NCBI GenBank assembly: GCA_943350875.1
Contig: CALRAL010000001.1
Span: 4,829-68,828, forward strand
From: Candidatus Nomurabacteria bacterium
GTDB taxonomy: Bacteria > Patescibacteriota > Minisyncoccia > Phycocordibacterales > UBA9973
DNA length: 64,000 bases
Reading direction: 5' to 3'
Within the stretch, counting starts at the first letter, position 1, and each line of letters begins with the position of its first letter. Under the pieces are notes generated by a model. The model was given only the letters and a program-made list of their open reading frames with translations, searched no databases and had not been told where the DNA came from. Positions 1,984-60,777 of the stretch are shown here, piece by piece. The position numbers and the translations under genes are program-made.

Positions 1984-3942
1984 ATGACAAATCAAAATAT
2001 ACACAAAGGTAATTTAATAGTAATATTTGGTTTACCTGGTTCTGGTAAATCAACACAATCAATTCTTCTTGAAGAAAAAATGGGTTATAAATATATTTCT
2101 TGGGGTAAAATTACAAGGAATATATTAAACAGTAAATTTGGTTCTGAAGATGATAAGAGGATTATACTTAATAATATAAAACATGGTTTTTCATATCCTG
2201 AAAAGTATATAAAAGAAAAAATAGTTCAGGCTTTTGTTCAAGATTTAGAAGCCGGTAACACTGATTTTGTCATTGATGGTTTTCCAAAAAGAACACAAGA
2301 AGCAAAAGATTTTATAGAAATAATAAAAGAGTTAAATTTGAATTTAAAGTGTGTAATCAATATTGCATGCACAGAAAAAACCCTTTTTAAAAGAATAGAA
2401 AGTAGAAAATATTGTGAAAACTGTGGTAAATTCTTTAATGATATTTTAAGACCCAGGAACGAGGGAATTTGTGATTTTGATTCAGGCAAACTAATAAGAA
2501 GAATTGATGATGATCCAGAGGTGGTAAAATTAAGAATCAATGAATATTTAAATTATGTAAATCCGGCTATTCAATTATTATCAAGTATATCAGAATCTTT
2601 TTTTTCTATAAATGGTGATCAAGACGAATTATTGATATTTTCAGATATTGTTACAAAACTCAAATCTCATAATAAAGATATATTTTCACTATTTAAAAAT
2701 GTTGGACACACACTTCTTCCAACTAAATATGGATATTTTGACATGTATGTTTACCAAAATATTATAAACTACGAGAGTCATGTTGTGTTAACATGTGGTG
2801 ATGTTTTGAATAAAAGAGGTATTCCCATAAGGATTCATTCGTCTTGTGTTACGGGGGATATTTTTCATTCAGAAAAATGTGATTGTGGAAGTCAAATTGA
2901 TCAGGCTATGTCATTTATACAAAAAAATGGTCAAGGTGTCATCTTATATCTTTTTCAGGAAGGGAGAGGTATAAATATGATAAATAAAATAAAAGCATAT
3001 GACTTACAACAAAAAGGATTTGATACTATATCTGCTAATGAATTTTTGGGTATACCAGCTGAAATGAGGTCTTACGAAGTCGTGAAGGATGTATTAAAAG
3101 ATTTTAGTATTAAATCAATACGTTTAATAACAAATAATCCAGATAAAATTTCAAAAATTCTTGATCTTGGTATAAATGTTGATGATACTATCGAACTTAA
3201 ATCAGAACATTTTGTATTTAATGAAGAGTATTTAAAAACTAAGGTTGACCGAATGATGCATTCAAAAAATCTAATTTCAGATATAAATATTAAACATTCT
3301 AATTTATCAGGTACATATCTTGAAATAGAAAAAAAATATTTACTCAAAAAATCTGATTTAGAATTATTTGAAAAGAAATTATTAGAATTATCTTTATCTC
3401 AAATATCACATCAATACGAGAAAAATCAAAACTTTGATAGAAATGGTATTTTTGAAAAAGAAGATGCTAGATTGCGTTTACGTACTAAAATTACGGATTT
3501 AAATGGGCAGACAAAGAATTTTGAATTTACTTACAAAAAAAGACTTTCTATAAAAAATGGTATTAAAAAAGAGACCGAAGTTAGTTATAATTTTGACTCT
3601 AACCAACCAGCAGAAAATCTTTTGTCTCTTTTTAAAATTATTGGACTCAACGAAAGAGACTCATACGAAAGGATAAGAAAAACATTTTCTAACGATGATA
3701 TAAAAATTACCATTGACGAATTTCCTTTTGGTTACATTGTTGAGATTGAAGGGGAAGAATTAAAAGTTTTAGAATACGAAAATTTACTTAATATGAATAA
3801 TTTTATTCAATATGGAGCAAGTTGTGATGATTTATATATGGAACTCTGTAATAAAAAGGGGGTAAAACCGAAAAACTTTATTCTTTTTGGTGATTTAGAT
3901 ATGCCTAAACTTGAAGATTATATTGAAACATGGAAGAAATAA
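1984..3942 (+). CDS. Three-domain fusion: adenylate kinase (P-loop plus Zn-lid), GTP cyclohydrolase II-like, CYTH (triphosphate tunnel)
   Basis: N-terminus GLPGSGKSTQS with lid CENCG...CDFDSG; middle RIHSSCVTGDIFHSEKCDCGSQ and YLFQEGRGINMINKIKAYDLQ...LITNNPDKI (RibA motifs); C-terminus YLEIEKKYLL (CYTH ExExK). Confidence 0.6.
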   Translation: MTNQNIHKGNLIVIFGLPGSGKSTQSILLEEKMGYKYISWGKITRNILNSKFGSEDDKRIILNNIKHGFSYPEKYIKEKIVQAFVQDLEAGNTDFVIDGFPKRTQEAKDFIEIIKELNLNLKCVINIACTEKTLFKRIESRKYCENCGKFFNDILRPRNEGICDFDSGKLIRRIDDDPEVVKLRINEYLNYVNPAIQLLSSISESFFSINGDQDELLIFSDIVTKLKSHNKDIFSLFKNVGHTLLPTKYGYFDMYVYQNIINYESHVVLTCGDVLNKRGIPIRIHSSCVTGDIFHSEKCDCGSQIDQAMSFIQKNGQGVILYLFQEGRGINMINKIKAYDLQQKGFDTISANEFLGIPAEMRSYEVVKDVLKDFSIKSIRLITNNPDKISKILDLGINVDDTIELKSEHFVFNEEYLKTKVDRMMHSKNLISDINIKHSNLSGTYLEIEKKYLLKKSDLELFEKKLLELSLSQISHQYEKNQNFDRNGIFEKEDARLRLRTKITDLNGQTKNFEFTYKKRLSIKNGIKKETEVSYNFDSNQPAENLLSLFKIIGLNERDSYERIRKTFSNDDIKITIDEFPFGYIVEIEGEELKVLEYENLLNMNNFIQYGASCDDLYMELCNKKGVKPKNFILFGDLDMPKLEDYIETWKK

Positions 3943-21238: not shown

Positions 21239-21244
21239 AATTGT

Positions 21245-21547
21245 TGCGGGGAACCGAATCGAACGGTTGTCTTAAGGTTATGCTTTACCACTATAGTTTT
21301 CACTACAAAAATTTTGTGGTCTGGACTATACCATCTCCTTTTCTAAAAAATAAATTAAAGATTAAGGAGCTCGCCATCTAGTCTCTACACTTTTATCTTT
21401 AGTTAAACACCAAAGAATTTAGCTCGGAATTGTCTTTCTACAAAATATGCAGATAGGATTTCTCCGAATTTGACGAGTACACACCCCTATGTTTCCAAAG
21501 AGGGGGCCCATATTTTCTAACGCTGAGCCTTATGAGATACCACTTCT
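21245..21547 (-). tRNA. Initiator-type tRNA-Met(CAT) interrupted in the anticodon loop by a ~233-nt putative group I intron
   Basis: Minus-strand 5' exon 21547-21516: CGCGGGG-TA-GAGA-AGTGGTA-TCTC-A-TAAGG-CT. Minus-strand 3' exon 21282-21245: CATAA-CCTTA-AGAC-AACCG-TTCGATT-CGGTT-CCCCGCA-A. Joined, these give a cloverleaf with C1·A72, anticodon CAU and loop CUCAUAA. The exon ends in U and the intron ends in G (21283). The intron carries GTAGAGACTAGATGG (R-like) and GAGATGGTATAGTCCAGAC (S-like). Confidence 0.6.
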
Positions 21548-21614
21548 CTACCCCGCGATGTTTTCTATGATACATTAAAAAATTAGTTTTTGCAAATGTA
21601 ACTTATGATTTTCT

Positions 21615-22349
21615 ATGGTTTGCATTAATAATAGAACTTATGATATACTGTTATATATGTCTAAATATAATGAACGAATAAGAGCTTTATCAATGAGAAG
21701 AGAAGGAGTTTCTATTCTTGTCATTGCGAGAGAACTTGGAGTCTCAAAAGGTACAGCTAGTAAATGGTGTCGAAATATAGTTTTGACTAAAGAACAATTT
21801 GAAAATTTAAAAAGAAATCAAGGAATATCAGTAAAAACAGGTCAAAGAATTGGAGCGGAAATGAACAAAAGGAAAAGGATTGATGCTATTAAGTCGGCTG
21901 ATATTTGGGGAAGTGAACTTATTAAAAAAATTTCTAAAAGAGAGTTATTATTGATCGCTACAGCGTTGTATTGGAGTGAAGGATCAAAAAGTGATCGTAC
22001 TTCGGGTTTTATATTTGTTAATTCGGACCCAGAGATGATTTTGGTAATGAAATTGTTTTTAGTAAATGTTCTAGATATACCGTCTGAAGAAATAGTATGT
22101 TCTATTCAGATTAATAGGATTCATGAAAAAAGGATAAACACTGTCTTGAATTTTTGGAAAAAACTGCTAAACTTACCAGATAATCAGTTTAGAAAACCTT
22201 ATTATGTAAATACCAAAATAAGTAAGGTGTATGATAATTATGATAATTATTACGGTATATGTAGATTGGTTGTAAGGAAAGGTATGAATTGGAAATACAG
22301 AATGATTGGTTTAATCAAGGCAGTAAAGAATAATATATTGTCGGCATAG
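21615..22349 (+). CDS. HTH-domain protein (resolvase-type HTH plus uncharacterised C-terminal domain)
   Basis: ILVIARELGVSKGTASKW HTH; its stop overlaps the first nucleotides of tRNA-Met. Confidence 0.4.
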   Translation: MVCINNRTYDILLYMSKYNERIRALSMRREGVSILVIARELGVSKGTASKWCRNIVLTKEQFENLKRNQGISVKTGQRIGAEMNKRKRIDAIKSADIWGSELIKKISKRELLLIATALYWSEGSKSDRTSGFIFVNSDPEMILVMKLFLVNVLDIPSEEIVCSIQINRIHEKRINTVLNFWKKLLNLPDNQFRKPYYVNTKISKVYDNYDNYYGICRLVVRKGMNWKYRMIGLIKAVKNNILSA

Positions 22350-22414
22350 CTCAGGTAGTTAGAGCGGGCGTTTCATAAGCGCCAGGTCCCAAGTGCAACT
22401 CTTGGTGCCGACAC
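22341..22414 (+). tRNA. tRNA-Met/Ile2 (anticodon CAT), elongator type (G1-C72)
   Basis: GTCGGCA-TA-GCTC-AGGTAGTTA-GAGC-G-GGCGT-TTCATAA-GCGCC-AGGTC-CCAAG-TGCAACT-CTTGG-TGCCGAC-A. Confidence 0.8.
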
Positions 22415-22889: not shown

Positions 22890-22965
22890 GCCGATGTAGC
22901 TCAGTTGGTAGAGCATCGCTTTCGTAAAGCGAGGGTCGACAGTTCAATCCTGTCCATCGGCTCCA
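22890..22965 (+). tRNA. tRNA-Thr (CGT) with encoded CCA
   Basis: GCCGATG-TA-GCTC-AGTTGGTA-GAGC-A-TCGCT-TTCGTAA-AGCGA-GGGTC-GACAG-TTCAATC-CTGTC-CATCGGC-T-CCA. The last ~5 nt coincide with the start of the recombinase-element inverted repeat. Confidence 0.85.
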
Positions 22966-24493
22966 AAACCCGACTTTTTTGTTGGGAACTCACAAAGGAG
23001 TGGGCGTCGCAAAGCGACGCCCATGCTGTTTGCATTTGTTTTGCGGGGGGATTCAGAAATTCTGGCGCGCTTGCGCGCACTAATTTGTTTTGGAGGAGGA
23101 GGTTCGAGCCAAAGATTTCTTTGGCACAGACCTTTTTGCAAAAAAGGTCTGTATCCAATGCAATTTTTTCCATATTCTGGGCTTTATTTATCCATTTTTG
23201 CATCGGTTCGAGCCACAATTTTTGTTTACCTTCCGAACGAGAAATTTCTGTCTCCAGCGACTTTTTCTCGGATAACAATTTTGATTTTTCAGAACGATAA
23301 ATTTCCTTTTCTATATCTTGGTCTAAATATCCGTCTAAAAGTCGCTGGAGCTTCACCACGATGTCTTGTATCTTCTTCTCGTTCTCCGAAACAAAAATTT
23401 GAACAGATTGGGCGGATTCCGTTTTGTCTTTTTCAAGTCTCATATTCAAATAATCCGCCCAATCTTGCGGCATAGAAACTTTTTGCAAGAGTGATGAAAT
23501 TTGTTCGTCCAACGACTCTTGGCGAATACAAGGTTCAGGACATTTCATATCTCGGCGTTTCTTGGTGCAACGATAGTAAGTGTAAAAATGTTGAGTTCCG
23601 TTAAGCTGTGTCTTCACCTTGTATTCGCCAGTGATCATCATTCCGCAAGTGGCACATGATAACAAACCACAATATGCTTGCGGTTCATTTTTCATTTTAT
23701 GTCGTGGACGACCTCTTTCTTTCATCACTTCTTGCACTTTGTCCCAAAGTCTCTTATCCACGATTGGCTCATGCTTGCCCTCATACACTTCTTTATTAAA
23801 TCTAAAATGTCCGTAATAAAATGGATTGGATAAAATGAAAGTGGCACGGGTTCGGTGGATTTTCTTTCCGTTTTTTGCAAAAAGATTATTCTGCGCCAAA
23901 AACATACCGATAGTGTCTAGTGTTTGATTTCCCTCTGAATACATCTCAAACGCCTTGAGAATAACAGGCGCGGACTTTTTATCAACTGCGATAGTTTTTG
24001 TTCGTGAATCGTTGATATAACCAACAGGAGTTAGTCCTGGATATTCTCCGCGCCTAACTTTTTGGCGCATCCCCCTTTTTGTATTTTCGGAAAGAGAATC
24101 CACATAATACTTACTTTGCCCAAACGCCATGTTGAGCATAAATTTTCCTTGTGAAGTGCTATCGCACCAAAATGTTGGAAATTTTAGCGTAGCAAGTTTC
24201 TCTGTGTCGAGGAGGTAAATTACTCGTCCACCATCAACGCTATTTCTTGCGAGACGATCCGGATGCCAAGCGAGAATGCTTCCGCCGAGTTTTTCAATCT
24301 CATCTAACATTTTATTAAATATCGGACGACCTGGAATTTTCGCAGATTGTTTTTCCACATACTCGGCGGAAATTTCAATCGCTTCTCGCTTGGCATAGTC
24401 TCGCAATTCGTCCAACTGTGCTTCAATAGACAAAACTTGTTTATCCTCGACATCAGTAGACTTGCGAGCGTACAAAAAGAATTTTTGTGACAT
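22901..24493 (-). CDS. Large serine recombinase (resolvase/invertase N-terminal domain plus recombinase domain plus Zn ribbon)
   Basis: N-terminus FLYARKSTDVEDKQVLSIEAQLDELRDY (catalytic Ser in YARKST); Zn-ribbon Cys pairs CGLLSCATCG...CTKKRRDMKC; 530 aa. The C-terminal ~60 aa read through the TIR and antisense across the tRNA, so the true stop is uncertain. Confidence 0.8.
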   Translation of the reverse strand: MSQKFFLYARKSTDVEDKQVLSIEAQLDELRDYAKREAIEISAEYVEKQSAKIPGRPIFNKMLDEIEKLGGSILAWHPDRLARNSVDGGRVIYLLDTEKLATLKFPTFWCDSTSQGKFMLNMAFGQSKYYVDSLSENTKRGMRQKVRRGEYPGLTPVGYINDSRTKTIAVDKKSAPVILKAFEMYSEGNQTLDTIGMFLAQNNLFAKNGKKIHRTRATFILSNPFYYGHFRFNKEVYEGKHEPIVDKRLWDKVQEVMKERGRPRHKMKNEPQAYCGLLSCATCGMMITGEYKVKTQLNGTQHFYTYYRCTKKRRDMKCPEPCIRQESLDEQISSLLQKVSMPQDWADYLNMRLEKDKTESAQSVQIFVSENEKKIQDIVVKLQRLLDGYLDQDIEKEIYRSEKSKLLSEKKSLETEISRSEGKQKLWLEPMQKWINKAQNMEKIALDTDLFCKKVCAKEIFGSNLLLQNKLVRASAPEFLNPPAKQMQTAWASLCDAHSFVSSQQKSRVLEPMDRIELSTLALRKRCSTN

Positions 24494-24811
24494 ATATTTT
24501 TTTGTTAAAGCAGAAATGACTATTCCAGTGTTGAAACCTTAACGCTAATTAAGATATCTGGAATAGTCATTTCTGCTAATTAGCTAATAACTGGTTTCAA
24601 CATTTCTAGTATAGCAAAAAATATTTGAGAACAAAAATTCTTTTTGAATAATTGCAAAAATTGCATTAGATTCCGAACCTCCTCCTCCAAAACAAATTAG
24701 TGCGCGCAAGCGCGCCAGAATTTCTGAATCCCCCCGCAAAACAAATGCAAACAGCATGGGCGTCGCTTTGCGACGCCCACTCCTTTGTGAGTTCCCAACA
24801 AAAAAGTCGGG
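22961..24811 (-). mobile_element. Serine-recombinase element 1: recombinase gene bounded by perfect ~140-bp terminal inverted repeats (22961-23102 / 24670-24811)
   Basis: The reverse complement of 24670-24811 is identical to 22961-23102 (CTCCAAAACCCGACTTTTTTGTTGGGAACTCACAAAGGAGTGGGCGTCGCAAAGCGACGCCCATGC...GGAGGAGGAGGTTCG). The outer end overlaps the 3' CCA end of tRNA-Thr(CGT). Confidence 0.75.
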
Positions 24812-25130
24812 TTTTGGAGTGTCTTTACGATTCCGCTCGAACTTACTTTATCAAAAATTCCTGAGAATATCCACAAGCGTTCCCCGCGCGCTAAAGCGCC
24901 ACCACGCGAAGCGTGGTGCTTCTGCTGAAGCAGAAGTGCGGGAAACGCTCTGCACCTCGCCACTAATGTTTTTCAAACGAGGCGAGGTGCAGAAATGCGG
25001 AACGCGAGCGAAATTTTGCGAAATGCTGGGGGTGTGGGGGAAAGTATTTCGCAAAAATTCGCTCGCGTACTTCCTGATTTTTTTTGGCAAATTAATTTTT
25101 TTGAATTTTTGCTCTCAGAGTTTTGAGCCT
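24812..25130. repeat. Inverted repeat C, left copy (~320 bp); partner at 28270-28602
   Basis: The reverse complement of 28270-28602 aligns along its full length with a few indels. The substitutions are compensatory within hairpins (CCACGCGAAGCGTGG vs CTGTGCGAAGCACAG; CTGCACCTCGCC...GGCGAGGTGCAG vs CTGCACTCCGCC...GGCGGAGTGCAG). Confidence 0.8.

Positions 25131-59156: not shown

Positions 59157-60777
<1,621 letters not shown>

Follow-up and report, generated by a model that had tools for sequence, protein, structure and literature searches.

Two tRNA fragments on the minus strand of the window analysed here, a 64,000-nt stretch of a metagenome-assembled genome (MAG), raise the question of whether they form one initiator tRNA gene and, if so, what lies between them. 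The initial annotation had joined them into an initiator-like tRNA(CAU), split in the anticodon loop by a putative group I intron. We read the locus as very probably the tRNA-fMet(CAU) gene of a Nomurabacteria-like member of Paceibacteria, in which an intact 243-nt group I intron, ORF-less and predicted to splice, separates U33 from C34. This reading is based on the sequence anatomy, a covariance-model match, helix covariation, and a presence/absence polymorphism among related genomes. The source contig is also present in ENA metagenome assemblies.

The split tRNA-fMet locus, as read from the letters and from ARAGORN calls, occupies positions 21557-21244 (minus strand). The 5' exon (21526-21557, minus strand; CGCGGGGTAGAGAAGTGGTATCTCATAAGGCT) covers tRNA positions 1-33 and reads CGCGGGG-TA-GAGA-AGTGGTA-TCTC-A-TAAGG-CT, with acceptor strand CGCGGGG, a D arm GAGA/TCTC containing the A11:U24 pair, the anticodon stem 5' strand TAAGG and, at its end, C32 and the last base U33. 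The 3' exon (21244-21282, minus strand) reads CATAA-CCTTA-AGAC-AACCG-TTCGATT-CGGTT-CCCCGCA-A and supplies the variable loop AGAC, the T arm AACCG-UUCGAUU-CGGUU, the acceptor strand CCCCGCA, and the discriminator A; CCA is not encoded. Joined, the exons give 71 nt, called by ARAGORN as tRNA-Met(cat) and folded by it in silico into a clean cloverleaf. In the unspliced DNA, the intron mode of the same program reports tRNA-Met(cat) i(33,243), while the gene escapes its default mode and also the Rfam tRNA model. The two halves and the intervening sequence thus lie on the strand where they had been placed, but the gene starts at 21557 and not at 21547, an offset of 10 nt; similarly, the intron, taken to be about 233 nt long (21515-21283), ends at 21283 as proposed but starts at 21525 and measures 243 nt. 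A promoter-like TTGCAA-17-TATCAT (21567-21595, minus strand) ends 10 nt upstream of tRNA position 1; promoter-like sites are not more numerous than expected from shuffled sequence, which makes this weak evidence.

The identity of the host tRNA can be read from its paired positions. C1×A72 and A11:U24 are determinants of bacterial initiator tRNA, and the spliced molecule has both, together with the anticodon loop CUCAUAA, so that the earlier description of an initiator-type tRNA(CAU) interrupted in its anticodon loop holds. The bottom of the anticodon stem is formed by A29-U41, G30-C40, and G31-C39, so that two G-C pairs stand where bacterial initiators canonically have three. The A29-U41 pair (window positions 21526-21531 and 21273-21277) occurs in intron-bearing and intron-less alleles alike, in MAGs of Patescibacteria, Omnitrophota, and Planctomycetes. 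Another CAU tRNA, encoded about 800 bp away at 22340-22414, has G1-C72 and C11:G24 and is therefore of the elongator type. ARAGORN detected no second initiator tRNA within the 64-kb window.

The intervening sequence (21283-21525, minus strand; 243 nt) has the anatomy of an ORF-less, IC3-like group I intron. Rfam model RF00028 (Intron_gpI) matches it over the full model (1-253) with 78.3 bits against a gathering threshold of 50 (E = 3.4e-18; positions 21535-21303, minus strand), a strong outcome for the covariance-model search on which the initial annotation had made its proposal depend. The splice junctions read ...GGCU|CAGCG...AAAG|CAUAACC; the 5' exon therefore ends in U (position -1) and the intron in G (omega-G, 21283), as had been claimed. 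The RF00028 alignment and the comparative structure also contain the two expected elements, a P1 helix with U·G at the splice site and a P7 helix with the guanosine-binding pair. The 5' strand of P1, GGCU|CA (21524-21529, minus strand), comprises the last four exon and the first two intron bases, with U33 forming the U·G wobble at the 5' splice site. It faces the internal guide sequence (21505-21512, minus strand), in which UGGGCC (21510-21505) is the 3' strand of P1. A putative 4-bp P10 between UAUG (21512-21509, minus strand) and CAUA of the 3' exon was identified by visual inspection and lacks conservation among homologs.

Further helices follow from P2 to P9, all on the minus strand. The P2 hairpin (21485-21504) carries a GAAA tetraloop (21495-21492) of the GNRA type, and all 7 of its pairs covary. 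The 5' strand of P3, CUCGUC (21472-21477), pairs with GGCGAG, its 3' strand in the comparative structure (21370-21375), and three of the six pairs show compensatory changes. Between these strands lie J3/4 (AAA), P4 (UCGGAG/UUCCGA), J4/5 (AAA), the P5 hairpin, and J5/4 (CAA) (21424-21471; comparative structure and fold), the P6/P6a hairpin (21389-21423; P6a pairs compensatory in 4/4), and J6/7 with the 5' strand of P7, GUAGAGACUA (21379-21388), which contains G, a bulged A, and GACUA. This is the 'R' element; it is invariant in 21/21 sequences, and its P7 pairs form in 100% of them. P8 (CUCCUU...AAGGAG; 21335-21369) is found in both the comparative structure and the single-sequence fold. It is followed by the 'S' element, J8/7 (AUGGUA) with the 3' strand of P7, UAGUCC (21323-21334), which provides the C of the guanosine-binding G-C pair. 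Finally, P9 (ACCAC/GUGGU; 21287-21320; two of five pairs compensatory) encloses the P9a hairpin (21306-21293; five of five) with its GAAA tetraloop. The strings that the initial annotation had likened to R and S are the J6/7-P7 and J8/7-P7' segments, almost entirely invariant across the 21 homologs. The minimum free energy fold of the single sequence contains P1, P2, P3, P4, P5, P6, P8, P9, and P9a (z = -3.1). Any ORFs that overlap the intron are at most 46 aa long; it therefore carries no homing endonuclease. The compact P1-P9 architecture lacks P2.1 and has GNRA tetraloops on both P2 and the P9 arm, which fits the description of subgroup IC3, and the intron aligns throughout with the seeds of Williams, four classes of which are listed as IC3. 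On these features, it is likely an IC3-like intron of the compact type found in bacterial tRNA genes.

Related loci were sought in one genome per GTDB species with the pattern CGCGGGG-N60-90-GTCAAATTCGGNGAAA. The scan returned 21 loci, all in MAGs; 20 of them could be resolved and are tRNA-fMet genes split by an intron; the remaining one is truncated by the end of its contig. Their labels are Paceibacterota, Parcubacteria, Nomurabacteria, Saccharibacteria, 'Patescibacteria group', Omnitrophota (4), Planctomycetia/Planctomycetales (2), Margulisiibacteriota (1), and unclassified 'bacterium' (2); no cyanobacterial locus among the GTDB species representatives matched the pattern. All 20 resolved loci encode tRNA-Met(CAU) with a 1×72 mismatch and an identical U33|C34 junction (...GGCU|...G|CAUAACC...) around introns of 193-269 nt. 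The insertion points called by ARAGORN vary between 33, 35, and 36 because the intron and exon 2 both start with CA, leaving the junction ambiguous. Omega-G is present in all 20, as well as in the related genome L037 discussed below, and 17 of the 20 scanned loci reach the Rfam threshold. The U·G pair at the P1 splice site is kept in 20 of 21 homologs. The lone exception, in a Saccharibacteria MAG (L017, ~2117-2401), has C at position -1 and A as its guide partner (alignment columns 8/41), and this C·A pair would leave C33 in the mature initiator tRNA.

A MAFFT alignment of 21 sequences was used to assess covariation. RNAalifold, applied independently, recovered P1, P2, P3, P4, the base of P5, P6a, P8, and P9a, with double compensatory changes in 26 of 47 pairs. 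This structure was extended by the P7 pseudoknot and P9 and freed of two spurious mini-helices, which gave a curated structure of 54 pairs. In it, 94.5% of cells are paired, compared with 29-41% when the partners are slid by 1-3 columns, and both partners have changed in 29 of the 54 pairs. The covariation score reaches 0.452, compared with 0.07-0.11 for the slid controls, and none of 500 shuffles scored as high. Covarying helices include P3, P4, P5, P6a, P8, and P9a, while P7 (G[A]GACUA/UAGUCC) pairs completely in all 21 sequences; every member has GNRA tetraloops at L2 and L9a. The intron of the window satisfies 52 of the 54 consensus pairs and is therefore not a decayed copy.

The genomic setting of the gene is shared by its relatives. 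The order GatC-GatA-ORF206-[tRNA-fMet]-ORF230-tRNA-Met-tRNA-Asp is common to the window and to related Paceibacteria genomes. ORF230 (21657-22349, plus strand; ORF called from 21615) belongs to a conserved 230-aa Paceibacteria family with 193 matches, which always adjoins the tRNA-fMet slot. Its nearest named relatives come from Candidatus Nomurabacteria (80% identity), then from Paceibacterota, Zambryskibacteria, and Parcubacteria; together with the shared synteny, this identifies the host as a Nomurabacteria-like member of Paceibacteria (Patescibacteria/CPR). The stop codon of ORF230 overlaps the following tRNA-Met gene by 10 nt.

Within this slot, the intron comes and goes. Six related genomes (L025, L027, L029, L031, L033, and L034) have an intron-less, 72-nt tRNA-fMet gene with the target ...AAGGCUCAUAACCUU..., the closest of them being L034, whose ORF230 is 84% identical. 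In L037 (ORF230 72% identical), a 239-nt intron, approximately 80% identical to that of the window, occupies the same site. It has the unusually long P1 loop of the window's intron, and its P3 is fully compensated (UUCAUC/GAUGAA, versus CUCGUC/GGCGAG in the window). Since intron-less alleles and the L037 intron share one slot, the intron is patchily distributed within the lineage, as a presence/absence element. No signal of exon co-conversion was found: in the anticodon stem, the sequences of intron-less Patescibacteria alleles equal those of the intron-bearing ones. As to a phage vector, the DNA pattern of the scan gave 0 matches in a viral contig collection, and this candidate was rejected. 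A separate observation is that tRNA-fMet flips its orientation between genomes and ORF206 and ORF230 do not (window 21244-21557 compared with L004, L008, L013, L025, L027, L029, L031, L033, L034, and L037). The flip occurs in intron-bearing and intron-less alleles, and inverted repeats were dismissed as its cause, as none flank the gene in the window. In one of these related Paceibacteria genomes, L031, a tRNA-Asp(GUC) gene (3371-3649) carries after U35 a group I-like intron of 204 nt (CUGU|...G|CAC), which matches the Asp.4Ug class of Williams' seed alignment.

Could the split gene encode something other than an initiator? The anticodon CAU is common to all three isotypes, so the host could in principle be an elongator tRNA-Met or a lysidine-modified tRNA-Ile2(CAU), comparable to the Ile2 gene that carries the intron of Azoarcus; one of the three initiator G-C pairs is missing from the anticodon stem, and a similar CPR-like intron is labelled 'Met.2Ug' in Williams' seed set. 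Nevertheless, both initiator determinants, C1×A72 and A11:U24, are in place, the ends CGCGGGG...CCCCGCAA equal those of E. coli tRNA-fMet, and the separate G1-C72, C11:G24 tRNA at 22340-22414 already stands 800 bp away. Moreover, classical Ile2 introns are inserted after position 36 (Ile2.5Ug), whereas the insertion here follows position 33. We consider a non-initiator host highly improbable. A different doubt concerns function: the locus might be a decaying pseudogene, inactivated by an old intron insertion, in a cell that uses an uninterrupted initiator gene elsewhere. The genome is seen over 64 kb, and splicing is a prediction, both of which leave room for such a scenario. Against it, both exons are intact and form a perfect cloverleaf, the intron, with its 52 of 54 consensus pairs and its invariant core positions, is among the best of 21 copies, and the gene sits exactly where relatives keep an initiator-type tRNA-fMet. 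Single tRNA gene copies are usual in Patescibacteria genomes, which also speaks against a hidden second copy. We regard a pseudogene as very unlikely; the combination named in the initial annotation as fatal to its proposal, an intact initiator gene elsewhere and decay at this locus, did not appear in the 64 kb. The split gene is probably the only initiator tRNA gene of the genome.

A third alternative assigns the intron a protein partner, with ORF230 as a free-standing homing endonuclease or maturase with which the intron travels or on which it depends. At its N terminus, the protein has an HTH_23 domain; the C-terminal domain, modelled with confidence, is of the alpha/beta type and contains the invariant motifs LYWxEGxK, NSDP, and QIN..H. 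This HTH_23 domain, the conserved acidic 'LYWSEGSK' motif, and the position of homologs directly beside the split tRNA-fMet in 6 of 20 other loci, in both orientations, could be taken as signs of such a partnership. However, the gene also flanks the intron-less tRNA-fMet in six related genomes, and is therefore tied to the tRNA slot rather than to the intron. The AF2 model (pLDDT 84) shows alternating alpha/beta elements and not the alpha-beta-beta-alpha-beta-beta-alpha order of LAGLIDADG proteins; Foldseek against the PDB gave nothing at E < 0.1, a profile search of PDB sequences gave no significant match, and Pfam, NCBIfam, and PHROGs yielded no nuclease family, the N-terminal HTH alone being found. 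The intron-less neighbours, the AF2 topology, and the empty PDB and family searches led us to reject a LAGLIDADG-type free-standing endonuclease, and a partnership of any kind between ORF230 and the intron appears extremely improbable. ORF230 neighbours the tRNA slot by synteny and is not an intron partner. With no intron ORF above 46 aa and no nuclease signature in ORF230, no homing endonuclease is associated with the intron at this locus.

The preferred reading, an intron-split initiator gene, places the locus among known bacterial tRNA introns. Four classical classes, all IC3, are Leu.3Ug, Arg.5Ug, fMet.2Ug, and Ile2.5Ug, where 'fMet.2Ug' denotes an intron that follows loop position 2 (U33) and has U at -1 and G at omega (Williams 2020, bioRxiv 10.1101/2020.01.27.920355). 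The insertion site in the window (U33|C34, U at -1, omega-G) is exactly fMet.2Ug. That survey reports 5,292 split tRNA genes in 21 classes found with tFind, with split genes per genome highest in Cyanobacteria (0.69) and then in 'metagenomic assemblies from unnamed phyla' (0.49) (bioRxiv 10.1101/2020.01.27.920355). The paper on tRNAscan-SE 2.0 put the 'missing' fMet and Ile2 genes of 36 genomes down to such introns (PMC8450103), and Lui et al. 2021 reported group I introns in some tRNAs of circularised, mostly CPR, genomes (PMC8172020). The split tRNAs that Williams found in MAGs are the same phenomenon, anticodon-loop group I introns that hide genes from standard finders, although the accessible portions of his survey and of Lui et al. 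give counts and not the locus described here. In the initial annotation, the intron was called notable in this lineage. The intron is indeed in the lineage, but its novelty was overstated, given the classical fMet.2Ug site and the precedents in MAGs and CPR (bioRxiv 10.1101/2020.01.27.920355, PMC8172020).

Among the closest known counterparts is the cyanobacterial tRNA-fMet intron (class fMet.2Ug), described by Biniszkiewicz, Cesnaviciene & Shub 1994 and known from Synechocystis PCC 6803 and Gloeobacter (cited via PMC8450103 and PMC1995217). It resembles the intron of the window in its host gene, the U33|C34 site, U at -1, omega-G, and sporadic distribution, and it has the same compact tRNA-type core (GUCAAAUUCGG ... 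GUAGAGACUAG ... AUAGUCCAG). The host here, in contrast, is a Patescibacteria MAG and not a cyanobacterium, and the Synechocystis intron is 655 nt long and encodes I-Ssp6803I (PMC1995217), whereas that of the window has no homing endonuclease gene. For a quantitative comparison, the family was aligned with 14 of the 26 curated seeds of Williams, and identity was calculated over core columns. The core of the window's intron is 84% identical to that of L037, 76% to that of L004, and 59-70% to those of other fMet-hosted introns; against IC3 seeds, the values are 54-65% for most of those compared, with one Tyr seed at 47%. The one curated fMet.2Ug seed (Tpc1.fMet.2Ug, 64%) is no closer than the Thr.3Ug (Mti5.Thr.3Ug, 65%) or Lys.4Ug seeds, and therefore these identities do not distinguish common descent with the cyanobacterial intron from an independent insertion at the same site. 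By core sequence, the intron does not stand apart from the known bacterial tRNA group I introns but lies within their continuum.

The Azoarcus tRNA-Ile(CAU) intron (Ile2.5Ug, Aol6 seed) is likewise a compact IC3-type molecule of about 200 nt with GNRA on P2 and GAAA on the P9 arm, and its J3/4-P4, J6/7-P7, and J8/7-P7' strings are near-identical to those of the window. It is, however, inserted after position 36 of a different CAU tRNA, its core identity is 58%, and it differs from the window's intron, which is AT-rich and has a long P1 loop and an AU-rich P8. Group I introns of CPR rRNA genes (Brown et al. 2015; Tsurumaki et al. 2024, PMC11270868) similarly occupy essential structural-RNA genes in the same superphylum; they reside in 16S and 23S genes and often carry LAGLIDADG genes, whereas the present intron is ORF-less and lies in a tRNA gene, and tRNAs were not treated in the rRNA-intron survey (Tsurumaki et al. 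2024, PMC11270868).

The conserved core suggests how the gene may be expressed. A precursor would be transcribed from the minus strand, and the intron would fold into P1-P9, with the GNRA tetraloops of P2 and P9a clamping the core. An exogenous guanosine bound at the G-C pair of P7 would then attack the phosphate after U33, held as U·G in P1 (GGCU^CA / UGGGCC). Subsequently, omega-G (21283) would take over the G site, and the freed 3'-OH of U33 would attack the 3' splice site. Ligation of ...GGCU to CAUAACC... would create the junction ...TCTCATAAGGCT|CATAACCTTAAG... and restore the anticodon loop CUCAUAA, and the 71-nt tRNA would receive its CCA afterwards. From the preserved sequence elements, we infer that the intron splices in the cell and that the mechanism would be ordinary guanosine-initiated group I self-splicing.

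A broader proposal links the loci. A single ORF-less intron lineage may have been exchanged among phyla as far apart as Patescibacteria, Omnitrophota, Planctomycetota, and Margulisiibacteriota, and gained or lost between close relatives without a homing endonuclease, e.g., by reverse splicing or by recombination after DNA uptake; the only initiator tRNA would then depend on a guanosine-requiring ribozyme. We consider this proposal conceivable but rather unlikely. If true, it would couple translation initiation to intron activity in ultra-reduced cells. As a find, the split gene is fairly ordinary, since its feature type is already catalogued in bacteria, and the understanding of group I or tRNA-fMet introns is unchanged. 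Its principal use is practical: default tRNA finders miss the gene and the genome looks as if it had no initiator tRNA, which affects estimates of CPR completeness and 'missing tRNA' calls. Additionally, the analysis adds approximately 22 covariation-supported compact group I ribozymes from four non-cyanobacterial phyla and documents the cross-phylum spread of an endonuclease-less intron, while the polymorphism at one syntenic Nomurabacteria-like site provides material on how such introns spread.

Two other features of the window were recorded. Rfam detected no group I or group II intron in its 16S rRNA gene (59158-60777), which at 1,620 nt exceeds the 1,533-position model by small expansions, e.g., of ~35 nt close to helix 6. 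Elsewhere, a perfect 146-bp inverted repeat (22961-23106 and 24674-24819) brackets the gene of a large serine recombinase (530 aa, 22901-24493, minus strand; Resolvase, Recombinase, and Zn_ribbon_recom domains), and its first arm starts 5 nt inside the 3' end of tRNA-Thr(CGU) (22890-22965). Either an invertible or mobile element that entered at a tRNA gene or an assembly artefact could account for this arrangement.
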